64,000 bases of DNA from Acidobacteriota bacterium. GTDB lineage: Bacteria; Acidobacteriota; UBA890; WLXD01. The translations under genes and the position numbers were made by a program. The notes under the pieces are model-generated. The model was given only the letters and a program-made list of their open reading frames with translations, had not been told where the DNA came from and searched no databases. This document shows positions 44,116-51,952 of this stretch, piece by piece (the stretch's first letter is position 1; each line of letters begins with the position of its first letter). The stretch is taken from positions 1,728,001 through 1,792,000 of the forward strand of contig CAXWPH010000015.1 in NCBI GenBank assembly GCA_963666055.2. Reading direction: 5' to 3'.

Positions 44116-46437
44116 ATGAAGAGGTCCCGTCCGCCCGTTCTCACCATCGCGCTGTTGATGCTGGTATCGGCAGCCGTGCTGCCCTCATCGAACCGCGCCG
44201 CCGCCGCGATCCACTCCAACGCCATGGCGCATCCAGGGCTCGGCATCGCTCAGGAAGCGCTGCCGGCGCAGACGCCGCTGTTCCGCAGCGCGGTGACACG
44301 AGTGCGCGTCGATGCCATCGTCACCGACAACGACGGCAATTTTGTCGACAACCTCACTCAGGAAGACTTCCAGATCTTCGAGGACGGCGTCGAGCAGCGA
44401 ATTCTCAATATTCAGCTGGTCGACCTCGAGACCGGCGAAACGGTCGACGTGCCATCGGAATCTGCCGCGCACGAGAGCGCCAGCTCGAGCACCGGCGGCA
44501 ACGGTGCGTACGACGCTGGTGCGGAGCTCACAGCGATCGCCAGAACGCCCGGTACGCTCGGTGCGATCGTCTACCTCGTCGACCTGCCAAGCCTGGATCA
44601 AAAAAACAAGCCCAGGCTCGCCGCGACTTTCCACGACTTCATCGAGGGTTCCGAGACACTGCACGTGCCGCGTAGCGTGTTCATGATCGACCAGCATGGC
44701 GCAGTGCAGGAGCTCGCCCCCCTGACCACCGATCGTGACGTGCTACGCGAGGCGGCCGAGAAGTTGTCTGTGGCTGGGCTGACACGCAAGACCATATTCA
44801 CGCGCATCACGACGGACTACGAGCCCGTGATGCAGCTGGCGATCGAGGCAGTGAACTCCGCCACCACGGGCGCCGGTTTCGCCGTGGGGACACCGCTCCA
44901 ACAAAATGTAAGACTGCGCGAGATCGTCGGCAACCTGGAAGAACAGGCGCGGCGAGACGGGGATCTGGAGCGCCAGCGGGGTGAGGCGACACTCACCACC
45001 CTTCTCCGCTTCACCAACGCCCTGTCGGCGATGGAGGGGCGCACGGCGCTGGTGTGGATCTCCTCCGGGGCCATGCTCAGTGAAGGCGGCCCGTACCAAG
45101 CCTACGCGGCCGCCGTTCGCGATGCGGTTGCCGTAGAGGCCGGCCGATCGCGGCTCGGGCGGGCCGCGCCGAACCGTCGCATCCTGGACCTACTGGAGGA
45201 GCTGTACGAAACCGCCAACACCGGCAACGTGAGCATCTATACGGTGGATCCGCGACCGATCTCCGAGCTCAACAATCTCGGGACCGCGGCTAGCGTCAGC
45301 GACAATCTCGTTTCGCAAGCGCTGCGTCGGCACGTTCGCCCTGCATATCGCGACCTCACTGCGCCTCTGCACGAGATTGCCAGCAGGACCGGCGCCCGGG
45401 CGTTCATCGGCTGGAGCAACCTGTCGGACGCCTTCGAGCAGCAAGTCCGCGACGCGAGCCGCTTCTACCTGGTGTTCTACGAGCCGCCACCGCCGCACGC
45501 CGATGGCGAGTACCACCAGATCGAGGTGACCCTGCGGCGGCAGGGCTTGCAGGTCCGCGCCCGCTCAGGCTACCGCGATCTGGCAGAGCCCGAGCTGAAG
45601 ACGCGCCAGATCGCCGCCGCGCTGGCGCTGCCCGGCTCGGTCATGGGTCGTCCGGTTCCGACTGCGGCGTATCAGCGATTCGCCGACGACGGCACGCCAA
45701 CCATCCTGCTAGTCGCTGGTCTGCCGCTGCCTGCGGAATCAGTCGACGGCAGCTGGGCTCCGGCGTTCGAGAGCATCGATATCTCGAGCCCCGACGTCAC
45801 CGCTGCCGACGGCTGGGTCGAGACCCTCGGTATCCGATACTTCCGGGTGCACGCCATCGCGCTGAACCGCGCCGGCAAAGTCGGCGCCGAGAGCCATGTA
45901 GTGGTCGAGCCGAGGCCGGACCTGTTTCGATACGCGCCCGACAACGCCTTCCGGCACTTCCGGTATACGGCCGAGTGGAGCGTCGATCCGGGTGAGTACG
46001 ATCTGCGCGTCGTGATCGCCGAGGACGGCGGCGACCGTGTGGGCACGGCGCGCCTCGAAGTTGAGGTGCCGTCTCCGGCAGACGGTTGGAACATGGGAGA
46101 CCCGATGCTCGTGGCGGTGGATCAGCGCACCGGGCTGATGCCGTTGCTCGGGCAAGGCGTGCCGGCGGGCATGCCGATCGCAGCCAGTGTCGAGGTTATA
46201 CATGGCATCGATCCGTTCGTGTCGGCAACGATTTTCCGTCGCGATGCGCGACGACCGGTTGCCGACATACCGGGGCAGTCGCTACCGCCCACCGGCCTGA
46301 CGGTGCACCGAGGAGCGCTCAAGCTGCCCACCAACCTCGAGCCAGGGAACTACCTGGTCGAGGTTCGGGTCATCGATGTCGACGCCAATGGGCAGGCGAT
46401 TCGACTGCTGCCCCTGGAAGTAGTCGCCCGCAACTAG
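44116..46437 (+). CDS. Acidobacterial-type VWA domain secreted protein
   Basis: FRSAVTRVRVDAIVTD...LTQEDFQIFEDGVEQ, GRTALVWIS, DGEYHQIEV...VRARSGY. Confidence 0.82.
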   Translation: MKRSRPPVLTIALLMLVSAAVLPSSNRAAAAIHSNAMAHPGLGIAQEALPAQTPLFRSAVTRVRVDAIVTDNDGNFVDNLTQEDFQIFEDGVEQRILNIQLVDLETGETVDVPSESAAHESASSSTGGNGAYDAGAELTAIARTPGTLGAIVYLVDLPSLDQKNKPRLAATFHDFIEGSETLHVPRSVFMIDQHGAVQELAPLTTDRDVLREAAEKLSVAGLTRKTIFTRITTDYEPVMQLAIEAVNSATTGAGFAVGTPLQQNVRLREIVGNLEEQARRDGDLERQRGEATLTTLLRFTNALSAMEGRTALVWISSGAMLSEGGPYQAYAAAVRDAVAVEAGRSRLGRAAPNRRILDLLEELYETANTGNVSIYTVDPRPISELNNLGTAASVSDNLVSQALRRHVRPAYRDLTAPLHEIASRTGARAFIGWSNLSDAFEQQVRDASRFYLVFYEPPPPHADGEYHQIEVTLRRQGLQVRARSGYRDLAEPELKTRQIAAALALPGSVMGRPVPTAAYQRFADDGTPTILLVAGLPLPAESVDGSWAPAFESIDISSPDVTAADGWVETLGIRYFRVHAIALNRAGKVGAESHVVVEPRPDLFRYAPDNAFRHFRYTAEWSVDPGEYDLRVVIAEDGGDRVGTARLEVEVPSPADGWNMGDPMLVAVDQRTGLMPLLGQGVPAGMPIAASVEVIHGIDPFVSATIFRRDARRPVADIPGQSLPPTGLTVHRGALKLPTNLEPGNYLVEVRVIDVDANGQAIRLLPLEVVARN

Positions 46438-46451
46438 TCGCCCGCAACTAG
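46421..46451 (+). repeat. 14-bp tandem duplication at VWA gene stop
   Basis: TAGTCGCCCGCAAC x2 + TAG. Confidence 0.9.
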
Positions 46452-46725
46452 TGGCCTGTAACAGATGATCGTTGCATATCGCAGATGGGATTTGCGGGTG
46501 AGATCAAGGCGCGGCGAGGAAGGCGATGCAGTGGGCATCGTCGATGAGGCGCAACGCCGAGATCGCCCGCAACTGCCCATCTGTCCGCAGGATGGCGGCG
46601 AAATCGGCCCGTCTGCGGCGTTGCTCCTCCTCGAGGATGGGCAAACATCGTCTCGTCGTCGCGCCTGGCATCCGGACCCATTTCGCCACCACGATATGCA
46701 ACGATCATCTGTTACAGGCCACTAG
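46448..46725. mobile_element. 278-bp MITE-like element, family A
   Basis: Perfect 34-bp terminal IR CTAGTGGCCTGTAACAGATGATCGTTGCATATCG; non-coding; between convergent genes. Confidence 0.85.
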
Positions 46726-46746
46726 TGTCCTGAGTCAGGACACTAG
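46722..46746. repeat. 25-bp CTAG-bounded palindrome
   Basis: CTAGTGTCCTGA-G-TCAGGACACTAG, sharing CTAGs with neighbouring elements. Confidence 0.85.
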
Positions 46747-46781
46747 AGCGCCGTGGTGGAAGTGTGGCGGGCCGTCAGATT

Positions 46782-48014
46782 CTACGAGGCTCCTTGACCC
46801 GGCTCCGTGGCGTTGACCAACGCTCCCATGTTGCCGTAGGGGTGGCGGTTCTCGTGCATCAGCTGATGCGCCTCGCCGATCTCATCGAACGCGAAGGTCT
46901 GTGACAGGCAAGGATCCACTTTCTTGTCGATGATCAGCTGGTTGACCGCCGCTGCCTGCTCGTCGTTGGACAGGTGGCTGCCCTGGAAGCGCTTCTGACG
47001 CATCCAGTGATACCGCAAATCGAGCGTCGCGTTGTAACCGGTGGTGCCGGCGCAGATCACCACCATGCCGCCAGTCGAGGCCACGAAGATCGACGTCGGG
47101 ATGGTCGCTTCTCCCGGGTGGTCGAAGACGATCGTCGGGCTTACGCGCCCGCCGGCAGCCTCCCAGATCGCCTTGCCGAAAGCTCGTGCCCCCTTCGCCC
47201 AGGCGCCGTACTCCGGGCTGTTGGTGTCGGGCATCACCCCCCAGTGGTCGAAGTCGCTGCGATTGATGACACCGATGGCACCGAGCTGCTTGCAGAAGTC
47301 GACCTTGTCCTCGCTCGAGACAACCGCGATCGGCCGGCCGCCGACGGCGGCGGCGATCTGGATCCCCATCGAGCCTAGCCCCCCCGCGCCTCCCCAGATC
47401 AACACCACGTTGTCGGGCTCGACGACGTTCGGCGCCCATCCCATCAACATGCGATAGGCAGTCGAGGCGCAGAGCATATAGCAGCCGGCCTGCTCCCAGG
47501 TGAGGTGCTCGGGCTTGGGTTGGCACTGGTGCGCTTGTGCTTTGGCGAACTGGCAAAAACTGCCGTAGTTGGTCTGGTAGCCCCAGATCTTGGTGCTCTC
47601 GGCGAGCATCGGGTCGCGCCCCGACAGCACCCACGGATCCTCCGGATGCCACCAACCGCTATGAACCACGACCTCGTCACCTGGCTTCACGTTGGTGACA
47701 TCGTCGCCGACCTTCCAGACAATCCCCGAGCAGTCGCTGCCTCCGGCGTGGAAATCCTCGGGCTCGCCGCCCTTCTGGCGCACCGCGATGACGTCGAGCG
47801 GCTTGCCGAGCGCCGCCCATACGTTGTTGTAGTTGATTCCCGTCGCCATGTTGTAGATCAGCACCTCGTCGGAACCGATCACAGGCGTCGGGATGATCTC
47901 GTGCTTGAACGCGTCGCGAGGCTCACCAAAGCGGTCCTGCCGGATGATGCAAGCGTGCATCTCGTCCGGAACCTCACCGAGTGGCGGGCGTTCTCCAAGC
48001 TCACAAATCTTCAT
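46782..48014 (-). CDS. ccr: Crotonyl-CoA carboxylase/reductase
   Basis: [54 protein letters not shown]. Confidence 0.9.
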
Positions 48015-48158
48015 GGGGTCTCCTGACCGAGGCAGTTCGCAAGTCTCTTACTCAAGCGGCGTGGCACGAACGCCAGGACGCCAGTGGATCCCCTCATATC
48101 GCCGTTCCGCCCGTCGATGTCAAGTCGGCAGGGCGGCAAGACCAGCGGCTGACACCTG

Positions 48159-48436
48159 CTAGCAGGCCGTGGTGAAAGTGTGGTGGGTCTGGTTACGGCG
48201 AGTTAGGGCCAGGTGCAAGGCGGCCTGACACAGGCGATGCCCCGGCCATCGTCGAGGAAGGCCAACGCCGCAAATGGCCCCAAATCGCCATAACCCTTCG
48301 GGCGACAGGGGGTTGCGCGCGTATGCTGCGTCGTTCCTCGTCAACGATGGGGTAACCATCGCCTCCTCCTCTCTCCTTGCCTCACTTCGCAAGACCCTGT
48401 CGCCAGACCCGCCACACTTTCACCACGGCCTGCTAG
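48159..48436. mobile_element. 278-bp MITE-like element, family B
   Basis: 34-bp terminal IR CTAGCAGGCCGTGGTGAAAGTGTGG(T/C)GGGTCTGG, 33/34. Confidence 0.85.
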
Positions 48437-48448
48437 TGTGCGCCCTAC

Positions 48449-49240
48449 ATGCATGCAACAAAGCCCGGGGGAGCCCTCGAAGCCACGCTCCGTAACGACC
48501 GCCTGTTCGTGCTGGGCGGGTTGATCGCCGCCTCACTGCTCGCCTGGGTGTACACGGTCAAGCTGGCTCGGGAGCTCCCGCACCTGCCCGCAGCGCACAT
48601 CGGCGCAGCGCGAACCCTCCCCTGGAATCCGGGTGACTTGGGGCTGCTGTTCCTGATGTGGACGGTCATGATGACCGCCATGATGGTACCAACCGCCGCG
48701 CCGATGGTGCTGGCGTTCGCCAAGATCAAGCGCAAGCAGGGCCCAGATCTTGCACCGATGTGGCCGGTGGTCGCCTTCGTGCTCGGCTACGTTGTCGTGT
48801 GGACGGTGTTCAGCGGCTTGGCAACTATTGTGGAGTGGAGGCTGCATGTTGCCACCCTGGTAGACGTCGACGGCGCCGCCGCCAGCCCACTCTTCGGCGG
48901 GGTGCTCCTGTTCACGGCCGGAGTGTTCCAATGGACGCCGTTGAAGCAAGCCTGCCTCAGACACTGCCGTTCGCCGCTGGCATTCTTCATGACCAGCTGG
49001 CGCGACGGCTGGCGCGGTGCCCTGGCCATGGGGCTCGAACACGGCATCTACTGTGTCGGTTGTTGCTGGGCGCTCATGGCCCTGATGTTCGTCGCCGGGG
49101 TCATGAACCTGCTATGGCTGGCGGTAATCGCCGCCTTCGTGCTGCTGGAAAAAGTGGTCCCGTCCGTGCGACTGGTGAGCAATACCGCCGGCGTCTTGCT
49201 GACCGTCTGGGGGTTGTACTTGATCCGCCTGGGCTTCTGA
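48449..49240 (+). CDS. DUF2182 family metal-binding membrane protein
   Basis: MWTVMMTAMMVP, QWTPLKQACLRHCRSP, YCVGCCWALM, LLEK. Confidence 0.9.
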   Translation: MHATKPGGALEATLRNDRLFVLGGLIAASLLAWVYTVKLARELPHLPAAHIGAARTLPWNPGDLGLLFLMWTVMMTAMMVPTAAPMVLAFAKIKRKQGPDLAPMWPVVAFVLGYVVVWTVFSGLATIVEWRLHVATLVDVDGAAASPLFGGVLLFTAGVFQWTPLKQACLRHCRSPLAFFMTSWRDGWRGALAMGLEHGIYCVGCCWALMALMFVAGVMNLLWLAVIAAFVLLEKVVPSVRLVSNTAGVLLTVWGLYLIRLGF

Positions 49241-49278
49241 CAGGTGCTAAGGTCCTGACTCGAGAAACGGGAGGAGCT

Positions 49279-49890
49279 ATGGCGGCAGGTTGGAGGATCC
49301 GTGGCGAGATTGTGCTGAGCTGCAACTGCGATGTGTTCTGTCCGTGTGTGGTGTCGCTCGGAACCGCGCAGCCCAGCCATGGTGTCTGCCACACCTGGTA
49401 CGCCATCAACATTCACCAGGGCAATGCCGGCCGGTTGAAGCTTGACGGCCTCAAGGTCGCTGTCCTGATGGATGTACCTGGCGCGCTCGCCGACGGAGGT
49501 TGGACGGTAGGGCTCTACGTCGACGAGAAAGCCAGCGCGGCAAAAGTGACGGCGCTCGAGAGGATCCTGTCGGGCAAGGCAGGTGGGCCCATCAGCTGGT
49601 TCTCGATCATGATCGCCGATTTTCTCGGCACCAAGCAGGTACCGATCAGCTTCGAAAAAGAGGGGCGCGGCTGGCGTGTCGGCATCCCTAAGATCATCGA
49701 CGGCCACGTGGAGCCCATAAAGGGGCGCGGCGGTAAGGGAGTCACCAAGGTGACCAACAGCGGCTATTGGATGGCGCCCGATATCGTCGTGTGCAGCGCA
49801 AAGGTGAGCCGGTACCGTGACTGGGGACGGAACTGGAACCTCGAGGGCCAGAGCGGCGAGTACGCCAAGATCGACTGGCAGGGGCCCTAG
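49279..49890 (+). CDS. DUF1326 family protein
   Basis: GGAGGAG SD; SCNCDVFCPC, YVDEKAS...ILSG. Confidence 0.9.
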   Translation: MAAGWRIRGEIVLSCNCDVFCPCVVSLGTAQPSHGVCHTWYAINIHQGNAGRLKLDGLKVAVLMDVPGALADGGWTVGLYVDEKASAAKVTALERILSGKAGGPISWFSIMIADFLGTKQVPISFEKEGRGWRVGIPKIIDGHVEPIKGRGGKGVTKVTNSGYWMAPDIVVCSAKVSRYRDWGRNWNLEGQSGEYAKIDWQGP

Positions 49891-50143
49891 CAGGCCGTGG
49901 TGAAAGTGTGGCGGGCCTGGTTACGGCGAGTTGGGGCCAGATGCAAGGCGGCCTGACGCAGGCGATGCCCTAGCCATCGTCCAGGAGGGCCAACGCCGCA
50001 GATGGCCCCAAATCGCCGTAACCCTCCGGGCGATAGGGGGTTGCGCGCATGTGCTGTGTCGTTCCTCGTCAACGATGGGGTAACCATCGCCTCCTCCTTT
50101 CTCCTTGCCTCCACCTCGCAAGACCCTGTCGCCAGGCCCGCCA
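49887..50143. mobile_element. Second family B element, right end truncated
   Basis: Collinear close copy of 48159-48436 in the same orientation, lacking the last ~21 bp. Confidence 0.85.
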
Positions 50144-50182
50144 AGCTACGGATCACGACCCGCGCATTCGTCTCAGTCGCCG

Positions 50183-51952
50183 TTAGTCCCGTCGGGCGAC
50201 CACGCCACGCTCCTGATCGACGACGATCTGACCGGGCGCCACATCGGTGAGCACCGTCTCCTCCCCGACGCCCCAAATTACCCGGAGCTCGTCGGCGCGG
50301 CCTGACGGCAGGTAGATGAGTAGCCGCGCGTCGTTGCTGCCGAGATAGCCATCGCCGCTGCTCATCTGCAGCACCTGCACATCATCGCCCGAGCGCACCA
50401 CGAGGCGCGATCCGTAGCCCATCCGGTTGGCCTCGCGACCCACCAGCCGCACCTGCAGCGCGGCAAGCCGTGGCTCGGTGTCGTTACGCAGCAGGTCCGG
50501 AGCACCGTTGATGTTGGTCACCAGCACATCGGCATCGGCGTCGTTGTCGTAGTCGCCGATGAGGGCGGCGCGCGACGTCGCCTCGATCGCCATCCCGGGT
50601 CCCGCCTGCTGCCCTATCTCCTCGAACTGCGCCTCACCGGTTTCGCGCCGTCGATTCAACAAGAGCAGGTTGCGTTGTGCGTAGGGCTCAAACTCGTCGA
50701 GCTGCGGATAGATGTGGCCGTTGGCAACGAACACGTCGACGTCGGCGTCGCCGTCCGGGTCGAAGAACTGCACCGCCCAACCCATGTATGGAAGGCTGCT
50801 GGCAGCCAACCCGAGCAGTTGGCTGACTTCTTCGAAGGAGCAGTCGCCGAGGTTGCGGTAGAGGGCGTTGTTGTCGTTCTGAAAGTTGCTGACCAGCAGG
50901 TCGAACTGCCCGTCGGCATCGAAGTCTGCCGACGTGGCGCCCATCCCCGCCTGCTCCAGGCCCTCGCTGCTATAGCCGGCGCCCGAGAACAAGCCCCATT
51001 CTTCGAGTACGCCGGTGGCGTCGCGGCGATACAGCAGGTTGATGGTCGAGTCGTTGGCGACGTAGATCTCGGGCCGCGCGTCACCGTCGCAATCGGTGGC
51101 CACCAGCGCCAGCCCGTAGGTTGATTCGCGATCGACTCGTTGACTCGGCCACGGCTCGAACGTGCCGTCCGCCCGGTTTCTGAAGAACACATCGCGCGCG
51201 CCATCGAGCCCCTCCGGCCCGCAGAAGACATCGACGCCCTGATACATACAGTAGCGGTCGCCCACCGTGTGAGTGTTGGCACCGTCGAAATCGACGTACT
51301 TGGCAACATAGACATCGACCCAGCCATCGCCGTCCCAATCGAGAAAGGTGGCGCTTGCGCCCCAGCCCTTGTCCTGCACTCCGGCCGGCCACGCGCTGAA
51401 CGTGCCGTCGCCGTTGTTGCGGTACAAGCGATCGGGACCGATGGCCGTAACCAGCAGGTCGGGGAAGCCATCGTTGTCGACGTCGGCGACCGCTGCACCA
51501 TTGCCCCAAACGTGATCGCCGGCACCGCCTCCACCGGGCACGCGATCATAGCCGCCTTGCCTGCGTCGGTAGAGAGCGTGCCCACCACTGGAATACCGAC
51601 CCGCGAGACCCGCGATCGATGCAGCAACCGGGTCGGCGCCGGAGCCCTCGAGGCCGTTCACCAGGAACAGGTCGAGGCCACCATCGCGATCGTAGTCGAG
51701 CCACGCCCCGCCCGAACCGCCGAACTCCGATATGTACGCCTTCTCGGCTCCACCGTAGTCGTGCGTAAACGTGATCCCGGCATTGTCCGGCACACGCACG
51801 AAGCGTACTTCTTGTCCCTGGGCGGCGGTCGAGCTGGGCGGCGACGCGAGCAGCAACAGTGCTCCGAGCATTGCGCACCGGGCACGAGAAACCCTGCCGA
51901 GACGCATGCGGATCGACCTTCGGCGAGCGCCGTCAGTCTGGCGTCGAATCAT
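50183..51952 (-). CDS. CRTAC1 family (FG-GAP/VCBS repeats plus ASPIC/UnbV) protein; start uncertain
   Basis: Repeated DYDRDGGLDL, DVDNDGFPDL, DFDADGQFDL; LYRNNGDGTF. Confidence 0.9.
   Translation of the reverse strand: MIRRQTDGARRRSIRMRLGRVSRARCAMLGALLLLASPPSSTAAQGQEVRFVRVPDNAGITFTHDYGGAEKAYISEFGGSGGAWLDYDRDGGLDLFLVNGLEGSGADPVAASIAGLAGRYSSGGHALYRRRQGGYDRVPGGGGAGDHVWGNGAAVADVDNDGFPDLLVTAIGPDRLYRNNGDGTFSAWPAGVQDKGWGASATFLDWDGDGWVDVYVAKYVDFDGANTHTVGDRYCMYQGVDVFCGPEGLDGARDVFFRNRADGTFEPWPSQRVDRESTYGLALVATDCDGDARPEIYVANDSTINLLYRRDATGVLEEWGLFSGAGYSSEGLEQAGMGATSADFDADGQFDLLVSNFQNDNNALYRNLGDCSFEEVSQLLGLAASSLPYMGWAVQFFDPDGDADVDVFVANGHIYPQLDEFEPYAQRNLLLLNRRRETGEAQFEEIGQQAGPGMAIEATSRAALIGDYDNDADADVLVTNINGAPDLLRNDTEPRLAALQVRLVGREANRMGYGSRLVVRSGDDVQVLQMSSGDGYLGSNDARLLIYLPSGRADELRVIWGVGEETVLTDVAPGQIVVDQERGVVARRD

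Follow-up and report, generated by a model that had tools for sequence, protein, structure and literature searches.

MITEs are usually pictured as stripped-down copies of a single insertion sequence (IS), of which the ends alone matter. Those mobilised by IS630/Tc1-mariner transposases include RUP of pneumococcus and Nezha of cyanobacteria, and the Correia/NEMIS elements of Neisseria are IS5-superfamily-related MITEs that contain an IHF site and are processed as RNA hairpins. REPINs have neither long terminal repeats nor a target duplication and need a Y1 (HUH) transposase (RAYT). Both MITEEc1_IS630 and IS1106_IS5-type MITEs are among the elements listed in PMC11602168, and the account of IS630-family transposases in PMC2170065 includes binding of the terminal repeats and duplication of TA.

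The window analysed here is a 64,000-nt stretch of an Acidobacteriota genome (contig CAXWPH010000015.1, positions 1,728,001 to 1,792,000). A sequence-only reading had singled out two elements in it, A and B, in which the middle is conserved and the ends are not. The explanation that we consider probable is that these MITEs of one family share a two-arm middle of about 200 bp and carry ends copied from two IS families, whose transposases are predicted to move them.

Elements A, B, and C

Element A (46448..46725, plus strand) is a complete 278-bp MITE with putative IS630-type ends (CTAGTGGCCTGTAACAG...). Its left (46448..46481, plus strand) and right (46692..46725, minus strand) terminal inverted repeats form inverted pair I4 and are 100% complementary; in the repeat analysis, the arms measure 35 nt (46447-46481 and 46692-46726), again with 100% complementarity. 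The left core module, which forms the tip of arm 1, spans 46505..46559 (plus strand, direct-repeat family D2), and a mirrored module at the tip of arm 2 was placed at approximately 46612..46670 (minus strand) from inverted pairs I2 and I10 and the module alignment. The genome contains about 10 full-length copies of A, with 96-97% identity. At the orthologous site, A is absent in the related genome G001 and in the strain of run X8; G001 has one CTAG there, followed by CGGGCC, which may be a remnant.

To the right of A lies a 25-bp palindrome, CTAGTGTCCTGAGTCAGGACACTAG (46722..46746), which consists of two fused IS630-type end tips, shares its CTAGs with its neighbours, and has about 14 copies in the genome. 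It is followed by a solo B-type left end (46743..46776, plus strand; direct-repeat family D4, inverted pair I6), a remnant that is absent in G001.

Element B (48159..48436, plus strand) is likewise a complete 278-bp MITE and has IS5/IS1182-type ends (CTAGCAGGCCGTGGTGAAAGTG...). Its terminal inverted repeats (48159..48192, plus strand, and 48403..48436, minus strand) form the 34-nt inverted pair I5, with 97% complementarity. In arm 1 (48193..48295, plus strand), the left core at 48216-48270 sits on stem S1, in which about 48193-48216 pairs with 48270-48295 (equivalents of inverted pairs I8/I9); arm 2 (48298..48407, plus strand; inverted pair I17) comprises stem S1' (48298-48317 with 48388-48407), capped by the mirrored core at about 48324-48383. 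The genome contains 79 full-length copies of B. At the position orthologous to B, G001, G003, and G004 have a single CTAG, and an X8 contig joins 48154 directly to 48429, without B.

Element C (49887..50143, plus strand) is a B-type copy that lacks the right end and is 92% identical to B over 225 nt. It belongs to direct-repeat families D1 and D7, its core (49944-49998) is the third copy of family D2, and its tip loop (CCCTAGCC) contains a CTAG. The ORF that lies upstream of C terminates at the first TAG of the element (49888-49890). The site of C is empty, with one CTAG, in G001 and contains deletion remnants in G003 and G004. The check proposed in the earlier reading, a comparison with relatives for empty sites with a single CTAG, thus gave such sites at both B and C.

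The same reading had described A and B as 278-bp, CTAG-bounded elements with unrelated 34-nt ends and an ungapped core at the same offset, and we find the same. Of the 34 end positions, 16 are identical between A and B; without CTAG, the count is 12 of 30. The 55-nt core, which starts at +57 from the first base, aligns without gaps among A, B, and C with 73-75% identity.

Abundance, distribution, and insertion sites

Of the 212 family loci in the genome, 105 are full-length and 107 partial, and all 268 core modules of the genome lie within these loci. A and B belong to the same abundant MITE family, which is short, apparently non-coding, multicopy, and bounded by inverted repeats, with empty sites of a single CTAG and with insertion polymorphism among close strains. 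A 20-base core pattern retrieved at least 106 stretches from public genomes, at least 102 of which were confirmed as homologous elements by a whole-element HMM; among the matches listed, the carriers include MAGs labelled Gemmatimonadota and Brocadiaceae. A search with B found the family in 22 of 41 genomes, namely, 4/4 of its own genus, 9/10 of the family, 11/15 of the sister family, and 1/15 of other families of the phylum. In G039, a diverged core is located inside a different repeat. Full-text literature searching returned no description of the family, which the supplementary MITE lists of PMC11602168 may contain, and cmscan of 45500-51000 against Rfam (both strands, E up to 1), a search proposed in the earlier reading, gave 0 matches.

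Insertions are associated with CTAG, a tetranucleotide that is rare in this genome (5391 occurrences, compared with 18834 expected from base composition). The MITE loci occupy 0.77% of the genome and hold 6.1% of its CTAGs; A ends are preceded by CTAG in 43 of 49 cases, and elements abut and nest at common CTAGs. The target duplication is probably TA: of 105 paired B elements, 83 have CTAG on either side and are uninformative, a 2-bp TA duplication accounts for 10, and a 4-bp duplication for 1. Some elements with the same body have ends that give 3-bp TTA/TAA duplications.

Conservation and fold of the body

Compared across 25 representatives, the tip stems are the most alike, with a mean identity of 0.95, followed by the left core (0.74) and the ends (0.48). 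The core is more similar than the ends in 281 of 300 pairs, which upholds the contrast first noticed between A and B. The body and the ends are sharply delimited: A is 71-73% identical to D-type elements over A positions 39-233, and homology breaks off at about 39 and about 233. In every class, both cores are equidistant from the ends and the total length is constant, and the two-armed 277-283-bp form dominates in every class and genome sampled. Selection would act on lineages and not on loci: the 79 B copies resident in the genome diverge by 3.7% overall, and the profile along the element is flat (core 1-7%, ends 2.6-4%).

Covariation supports a Y-shaped fold, in which the paired ends would form the closing stem and the conserved cores would cap two arms. 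Compensatory changes occur in 71 of 98 predicted pairs, and in the arms alone 43 of 65 pairs are changed on both sides (33 expected), although such counts can be inflated by related or palindrome-born sequences without selection for structure. In helix 1, the stem of arm 1, 18 of 19 pairs are changed on both sides, and in helix 7, the stem of arm 2, 12 of 13. For the arms alone, 92.7% of cells pair, compared with 71.7% in shuffles (0/500) and 32-44% in slid controls, and A and B folded as DNA reach z = -11. The core had been proposed to fold as a hairpin; it does so at the arm tips, on stems that covary. A second, inverted core in the right half, also part of that proposal, is substantiated by inverted pairs I2, I3, and I10 and an alignment of 34 modules. 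The two halves are nevertheless not simply inverted copies, because each has its own stem, S1 or S1', of unrelated sequence, and only the ends and the core are mirrored.

The tip stem retains a G-T/G-U pair on the inward-read strand from either end, in arm 1 in 14 of 17 sequences. The right tip stem has been replaced in a compensatory manner in two classes, so that sequence-specific recognition would hold for the left tip only. K-turn, CsrA, IHF, dif-like, and attC-like readings of the core were compared by eye, and none fits the conserved positions.

End classes and matching insertion sequences

At least 10 end classes were distinguished, all of them on a homologous 277-283-bp element, and several match the ends of actual IS. 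The B ends agree at 21/21 and 20/21 nt with those of an IS5/IS1182-like IS in G011, which is 1505 bp long, occupies 4 loci, and encodes a 472-aa DUF772 protein (69.4 bits); this protein scores 158.6 with the IS1182 model, its best NCBIfam match, and 79.7 with the IS5 model, both below the NCBIfam cut-offs. The D-class ends match those of a 1345-bp IS in G007 at 24 of 26 positions; it scores as IS5 family with NF033581 (269.9 bits). The F-class MITE of G012 matches the ends of the resident IS630-family IS, a single DDE_3 copy (NF033545, 282 bits), at 23 of 24 positions. The A ends appear to be of the IS630 type, with a weaker match than the B, D, and F ends have to their IS: they agree at only 19 of 24 positions with the right end of an IS630-family IS of G007 and at about 17 of 24 with the single resident IS630 copy. 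Judged from these matches, the difference between the A and B ends would reflect ends of different IS families on the same body.

In 32 B-lineage elements sampled from 17 genomes, the 34-nt end hardly varies, although identity between whole elements is only 72-77% and the stems of the arms have drifted. One-armed derivatives, without arm 1 and its core, are present at no fewer than 12 distinct loci with shared breakpoints. These derivatives have spread, and the arms are therefore not essential. Composites bounded by B ends were found at 6 distinct loci, again with shared breakpoints.

The elements are not internal-deletion remnants of an IS, an alternative that the initial reading had named as one that would refute it: the element and core HMMs gave 0 matches inside 19 IS630 copies, and 29 of 30 IS5-like loci lack the tip motif. 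As that reading had stated, the region of the window contains no transposase. A search of this genome for an IS with B-type ends yielded none; inverted pairs of B ends at most 3.5 kb apart enclose ordinary ORFs. Several candidate partners were rejected. The resident 1173-bp IS5-like element (8 DUF772 copies) has unrelated ends (GGAACCTCTGATC...) and TTAA flanks, and a second DDE_Tnp_1 gene, C2:402886, has no B end nearby. A dependence of B on IS630, suggested by its TA-type junctions, was dropped once the IS5/IS1182-like IS with B and D ends were found, and G001:C192, taken for an A-type parent, is really an IS630-type IS that abuts an A fragment at a common CTAG. DUF772 was detected in none of 4 other genomes of the genus, DDE_3 matches are absent in G003, G004, G005, G011, and G012, all of which are rich in these elements, and PF13586 gave no match. 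A RAYT/REPIN reading was rejected, as the Y1 (HUH) transposase (PF01797) was found in none of 5 genomes, the present one (G000) included.

Gene context and RNA

Full-length elements often provide the end of the adjacent gene: 51 of 89 supply the TAG stop codon to a high-GC3 ORF of 100 codons or more, compared with 21% of 5064 other CTAG sites. Genes enter from the arm-2 side more often than from the other (36 vs 17; binomial p = 0.013), and the corresponding counts in other genomes are 9 and 5. This orientation bias towards the upstream gene (17 vs 36) would fit an RNA-level effect better than an architectural role. Contigs with A- and B-type pieces occur in RNA libraries X20, X21, and X23, which is weak evidence, as DNA may be present. 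The unique flanking genes have no cover in X20-X23, so these libraries have no bearing on expression of the locus.

An intrinsic terminator was rejected, as no T-run follows the hairpins and terminator-like sites occur at the level of chance (3 found, 1.9 expected). A coding function was also considered and is probably to be discarded. A contains 86-codon ORFs on both strands, and the tip loops inside them differ by 1-3 nt in length between lineages. In the ORFs of 65-86 codons whose stop is the terminal TAG, the length changes of the loop just inside are out of frame from one lineage to another, and there is no conservation of the Shine-Dalgarno-like run.

Discussion

These results are consistent with a model in which each end class would be mobilised in trans by the matching transposase, and in which IS630-type and IS5/IS1182-type transposases would both target the rare CTAG. 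A new class would originate whenever the body takes on the ends of a different IS, and the body itself would be kept by selection on transposing lineages, whichever transposase is used. Because the ends that flank this one core belong to two or more unrelated transposase families, the core cannot serve as the binding site for any single one of these transposases, and the sharing of a folded middle by such different ends makes it likely that the middle has a role of its own. This role may be that of a cis-acting architectural DNA module, whose foldable arms, with tips bound by a host factor, would hold the ends in a fixed geometry for pairing. We put this forward tentatively, as a possibility held with limited confidence; the spread of one-armed derivatives counts against it because the arms are not essential. 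The two-arm body might also be a hitch-hiker with its own trans-acting partner, a host or other protein reading the GGCGATG...CATCGTC tips, which would have repeatedly taken the ends of CTAG/TA-targeting transposases (IS630, IS5/IS1182, and TTA/TAA duplicators) across Acidobacteriota, an idea that we regard as unlikely.

A body that acts at the level of RNA seems somewhat unlikely. The elements would land after stop codons and be read through, and the arms would provide 3' structure in both directions, as a terminator, a processing site, or a block to exonucleases, so that the insertion is harmless or useful whichever transposase delivers it. The frequent supply of TAG stops, the bias of gene entry towards arm 2, and the A- and B-type pieces in RNA-library contigs, weak as they are, all agree with this, as do covariation, which is a typical trace of RNA structure, and the retained G-T/G-U pair. 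However, an RNA hairpin needs neither a constant length nor equal distances between core and ends, 95% sequence conservation of the tip stem exceeds what a stem requires, and no additional constraint is seen on the core in the resident copies; terminator signals are at chance, with no T-run. Alternatively, the body may be a functionless old passenger, with new MITE classes produced by template switching into existing copies and hairpin pairing kept by arm-to-arm repair. The sharp homology break between ends and body, the flat divergence among resident copies, and the mobility of one-armed forms would all be expected, and abutting and nested elements at common CTAGs would provide the opportunity. 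Arm-to-arm repair would maintain pairing but could not preserve the tip sequence so well (0.95 identity) between lineages in which half of the remaining positions differ, and the two-armed 277-283-bp form dominates everywhere sampled; we consider this explanation improbable.

The proposal that accompanied the discovery of the pair, that the core is the recognised unit, an internal hairpin read by one recombinase or transposase, and that nothing but pairing and a terminal CTAG is required of the outer repeat, has become very improbable. It would account for a core that is kept across at least 10 end classes, for end pairing that is kept through many pair types, and for the several element-rich genomes without a DDE_3 match. 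It is contradicted by ends whose sequence hardly changes within a lineage, in contrast to the drifting arm stems, and that equal those of IS5/IS1182-like and IS630 IS, which lack the core. In addition, derivatives without arm 1 have multiplied, every core in this genome lies within an element, and 5 genomes contain no Y1/HUH transposase.

According to the preferred explanation, a folded body of about 200 bp with near-invariant tips and fixed length would be carried on the ends of at least two unrelated transposase families and has spread in uncultured Acidobacteriota. Should the body promote transposition or render insertions harmless, it would constitute a portable accessory module common to different transposons, an idea that is easy to test now that matching IS/MITE pairs have been identified; if it is a hitch-hiker, it would be a transposase-agnostic chassis and not a by-product of one IS. 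The elements also hold about 6% of the genome's rare CTAGs, supply many gene stop codons, and break short-read assemblies.

Comparison with known systems

The family resembles REP/BIME/REPIN sequences in its abundant intergenic hairpins, with conserved sequence at the structure and compensatory changes in the stems. Unlike REPINs, its members leave a single CTAG at empty sites, and the Y1 transposase is missing from the 5 genomes. Element A and the E/F classes resemble IS630-type MITEs, as they are short and apparently non-coding, have IS630-like ends, putatively so in A, and are probably inserted at TA inside CTAG. They differ in their two-arm body, which is unrelated to the IS and is common to elements with IS5/IS1182-type ends. 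Elements B and C and the D class share with IS5-superfamily MITEs their IS5/IS1182-like ends, CTAG target, intergenic location, and palindromic structure, and may hold an internal host-factor site. In contrast to those MITEs, they have two independent arms with a near-invariant tip and a constant length of 277-283 bp, and their body is also found with IS630-type and TTA/TAA-duplicating ends.

Related CTAG-bounded elements in the window

The window contains three related MITEs. Elements A (46448-46725) and B (48159-48436) are each 278 bp long with CTAG at start and end, the inverted ends being 35 nt and perfect in A, and 34 nt and 97% complementary in B. Element C (49887-50143), also CTAG-bounded, is a copy of B at 92% identity in which the right end is missing. 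A 55-nt core is present as an ungapped direct repeat at +57 of all three (73-75% identity), and the right halves of A and B hold a mirrored copy that is more diverged than the left one. Repeat analysis and module alignment thus bear out what a sequence-only reading of A and B had described, namely CTAG elements with a shared ungapped core and a second, diverged inverted copy. The Rfam search that this reading called for returned zero matches for the region at E values up to 1.

Just before A (46421-46451), the 14-bp unit TAGTCGCCCGCAAC is duplicated in tandem, so that the stop-codon CTAG of an 833-aa ORF is present twice. The unit is single in G001, a genome of the same genus; slippage or insertion-linked duplication are possible origins. 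Between A and the next gene lie two remnants, a 25-bp palindrome (46722-46746) and a solo B-type end (46743-46776). The palindrome, which has about 14 copies in the genome (e.g. C14:220825 and C15:616916), consists of two fused IS630-type end tips, is bounded by CTAG and often adjoins an end of type B. It could be either the remnant of a repair event or a mobile unit reduced to a minimum.

One body with many end classes

Comparison of A with elements of the D end class showed 71-73% identity over A positions 39-233 and none outside, with a sharp break immediately inside the ends. A search of public genomes with a 20-base pattern of the core matched at least 106 stretches, with 102 homologous elements among the matches listed. 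Most of these come from MAGs with an Acidobacteriota or Thermoanaerobaculia label; a few of those listed carry labels of Gemmatimonadota, Brocadiaceae and others, for which binning errors or transfer may be responsible. Boundaries are clean in 34 elements among the matches listed, and 26 of these 34 measure 277-283 bp. At least 10 end classes occur on the family body. One class, with GGGCC... ends, has the same triplet, TTA or TAA, on both sides in 9 of 11 cases, and the end of another, GGAACCTCTGAACAAGTT, is similar to that of a resident 1173-bp IS5-like element. Pairwise comparison of 25 representatives sharing <85% identity gave mean identities of 0.48 for the ends, 0.50-0.55 for stem S1, 0.74 for the left core, 0.95 for its tip stems and 0.63 for the right core; core identity exceeds end identity in 281 of 300 pairs.

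For 17 representatives, RNAalifold predicted a three-way junction, in which a closing stem (alignment columns 2-34 with 261-293) pairs the two ends, arm 1 consists of stem S1 with the left core at its tip, and arm 2 consists of stem S1', of unrelated sequence, capped by the mirrored core. Compensatory change was found in 71 of the 98 predicted pairs. When the arms were taken alone, 92.7% of cells pair, compared with 71.7% in shuffles (0/500 reach the observed value), and both sides have changed in 43 of 65 pairs (33 +/- 2.2 expected), including 18/19 pairs of S1 and 12/13 of S1'. Sliding the partners by 1-3 columns gave 32-44% pairing. The tip stems GGCGATG / CATCGTC are nearly invariant and retain a G-T pair, and the right tip stem has been replaced compensatorily in two classes. 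The tip loops vary freely in sequence and length (6-8 nt), and that of consensus B contains CTAG.

Origin of the differing ends

The ends of A and B are unrelated because they would belong to two unrelated transposase families that both use CTAG: judged by end similarity, A probably has IS630-type ends, and B and C have IS5/IS1182-type ends. The A end (CTAGTGGCCTGTAACAG...) resembles the right end of an IS630-family insertion sequence (IS) of G007, a genome of the same taxonomic family as the window's, at 19/24 nt. The window's genome itself has one IS630-family IS, which scores on DDE_3 and reaches 282 bits on NF033545; its ends, CTAGTGTCCTGAGTCAGAAGTTCG / CTAGTCTCCTGAGTTATAAATTCG, recur as the 25-bp palindrome adjoining A and, at 23/24 nt, in the F class of MITEs of genome G012. 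The B end resembles none of six delimited IS630-type elements, and DDE_3 has no match at all in several element-rich genomes. The B end does match the ends CTAGCAGGCCGTGGTGAAAGT / CTAGCAGGCCGTGGCGAAAGT (21/21 and 20/21 nt) of a 1505-bp IS present at four loci in the relative G011; the 472-aa DUF772 protein of this IS scores best, though below cut-off, on the IS1182 model of NCBIfam. Similarly, a 1345-bp IS5-family IS of G007 (269.9 bits on NF033581) has the end CTAGCAGGGTGATGAAGAACGCTGG, equal to the D-class end at 24/26 nt.

In G011, the stop codon of the 472-aa transposase ORF (L260 1327-2745) is the TAG of the terminal CTAG of the IS. G007 is rich in IS, with at least 146 DUF772 (IS5-like) and 44 IS630-type transposase matches, and five of seven copies of one of its IS630-type elements abut a B-like MITE end. 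G039, from a distant family of the phylum, has at least 48 IS630-type copies and at least 25 copies of another ~200-bp repeat, one that contains a hairpin resembling a diverged core (L226-L248); one ~290-bp copy terminates in a G-class end beside an IS.

Mobility and distribution

In the window's genome, which comprises 15 contigs and 5.73 Mb at 64% G+C, the family has 212 loci, 105 full-length and 107 partial. Full-length copies are mostly of type B (~79), followed by A (~10), with the D and E types rarer. The genome strongly avoids CTAG, with 5391 sites observed and 18834 expected from base composition. The elements account for 0.77% of the DNA and contain 6.1% of the observed CTAG sites. 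Elements abut and nest at shared CTAGs, since each insertion rebuilds two CTAGs. The CTAG in the arm-1 tip loop is itself a site of nested insertion (C1:107440-107801, C12:297190-297551 and four more), and in G002 and G004, of the same genus, A is split at ~82-86 by inserts of ~173-284 bp at nine loci or more.

A comparison of empty sites in relatives had been proposed by the sequence-only reading, and a single CTAG was indeed found. Orthologous site B is empty in G001, G003 and G004 (GACACCTG-CTAG-(T/G)G...), as is site C in G001 (GGGGCC-CTAG-TTGCG); site A in G001 has one CTAG followed by CGGGCC, possibly a remnant. Contigs from X8, a sequencing run of a closely related strain, are joined across A, B and most of C. 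This strain lacks these sequences and differs from the window by ~3% in the flanks within 46200-50400, whereas the more distant G002 (93% identity) still retains B in truncated form and part of A, a pattern suggestive of excision, of allele replacement or of recurrent insertion at one and the same CTAG.

When 41 genomes were searched with B, 22 gave matches: 4/4 of its own genus, 9/10 of its taxonomic family, 11/15 of the sister family and 1/15 from other families of the phylum. The element family is thus both old and widespread.

Ends, core and the possible role of the body

The core had been proposed as the recognised unit, and the lineage data speak against this. The 34-nt end is nearly invariant across 32 elements of the B lineage, drawn from 17 genomes, while whole-element identity is only 72-77% and the arm stems have changed. 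B derivatives that lack arm 1, and with it the best-conserved core copy, share common breakpoints and occur at 12 or more distinct loci, and 362-bp composites of B(1-84) with a full B occur at the six nested-insertion loci noted above. These comparisons indicate that the ends, rather than the core, probably decide which elements spread. The alternative that the elements are simple internal deletions of known IS did not hold either, because the core is absent from all 19 IS630 copies and the tip motif from 29 of 30 IS5-like loci.

The 79 resident B copies diverge from their consensus by 3.7% overall, evenly along the element (core 1-7%, ends 2.6-4%), so conservation between lineages would reflect their continued spread and not upkeep at each locus. 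Any partner of the core should not be a transposase, since the same core serves the ends of unrelated transposases. We tentatively favour an architectural role at the DNA level together with a host factor, because the length is constant, both cores are equidistant from the ends, and the stems are constrained in structure only and the tips in sequence. Only slightly less likely, albeit doubtful in its own right, is a function at the RNA level within 3' untranslated regions. It is in line with placement at stop codons: 51 of 89 full-length elements provide a long ORF of high GC3 with its TAG stop, as do only 21% of the other CTAG sites. Orientation is also biased among full-length elements across the window's genome (L011-L107). 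The gene that takes its stop codon from the element lies on the side of arm 2 in 36 cases and on that of arm 1 in 17 (p = 0.013), and other genomes lean the same way (9 vs 5). RNA libraries contain pieces of the elements, which by itself does not amount to transcription of this locus; the fold has no clear strand-specific RNA signature, as G-T pairs are about as frequent as A-C mismatches outside the conserved pair.

Taken together, the elements are MITEs, an ordinary kind of thing, and the family to which A, B and C belong is apparently undescribed. Its unusual property is that a single conserved folded body probably wears the ends of two different transposase families, side by side in the window.
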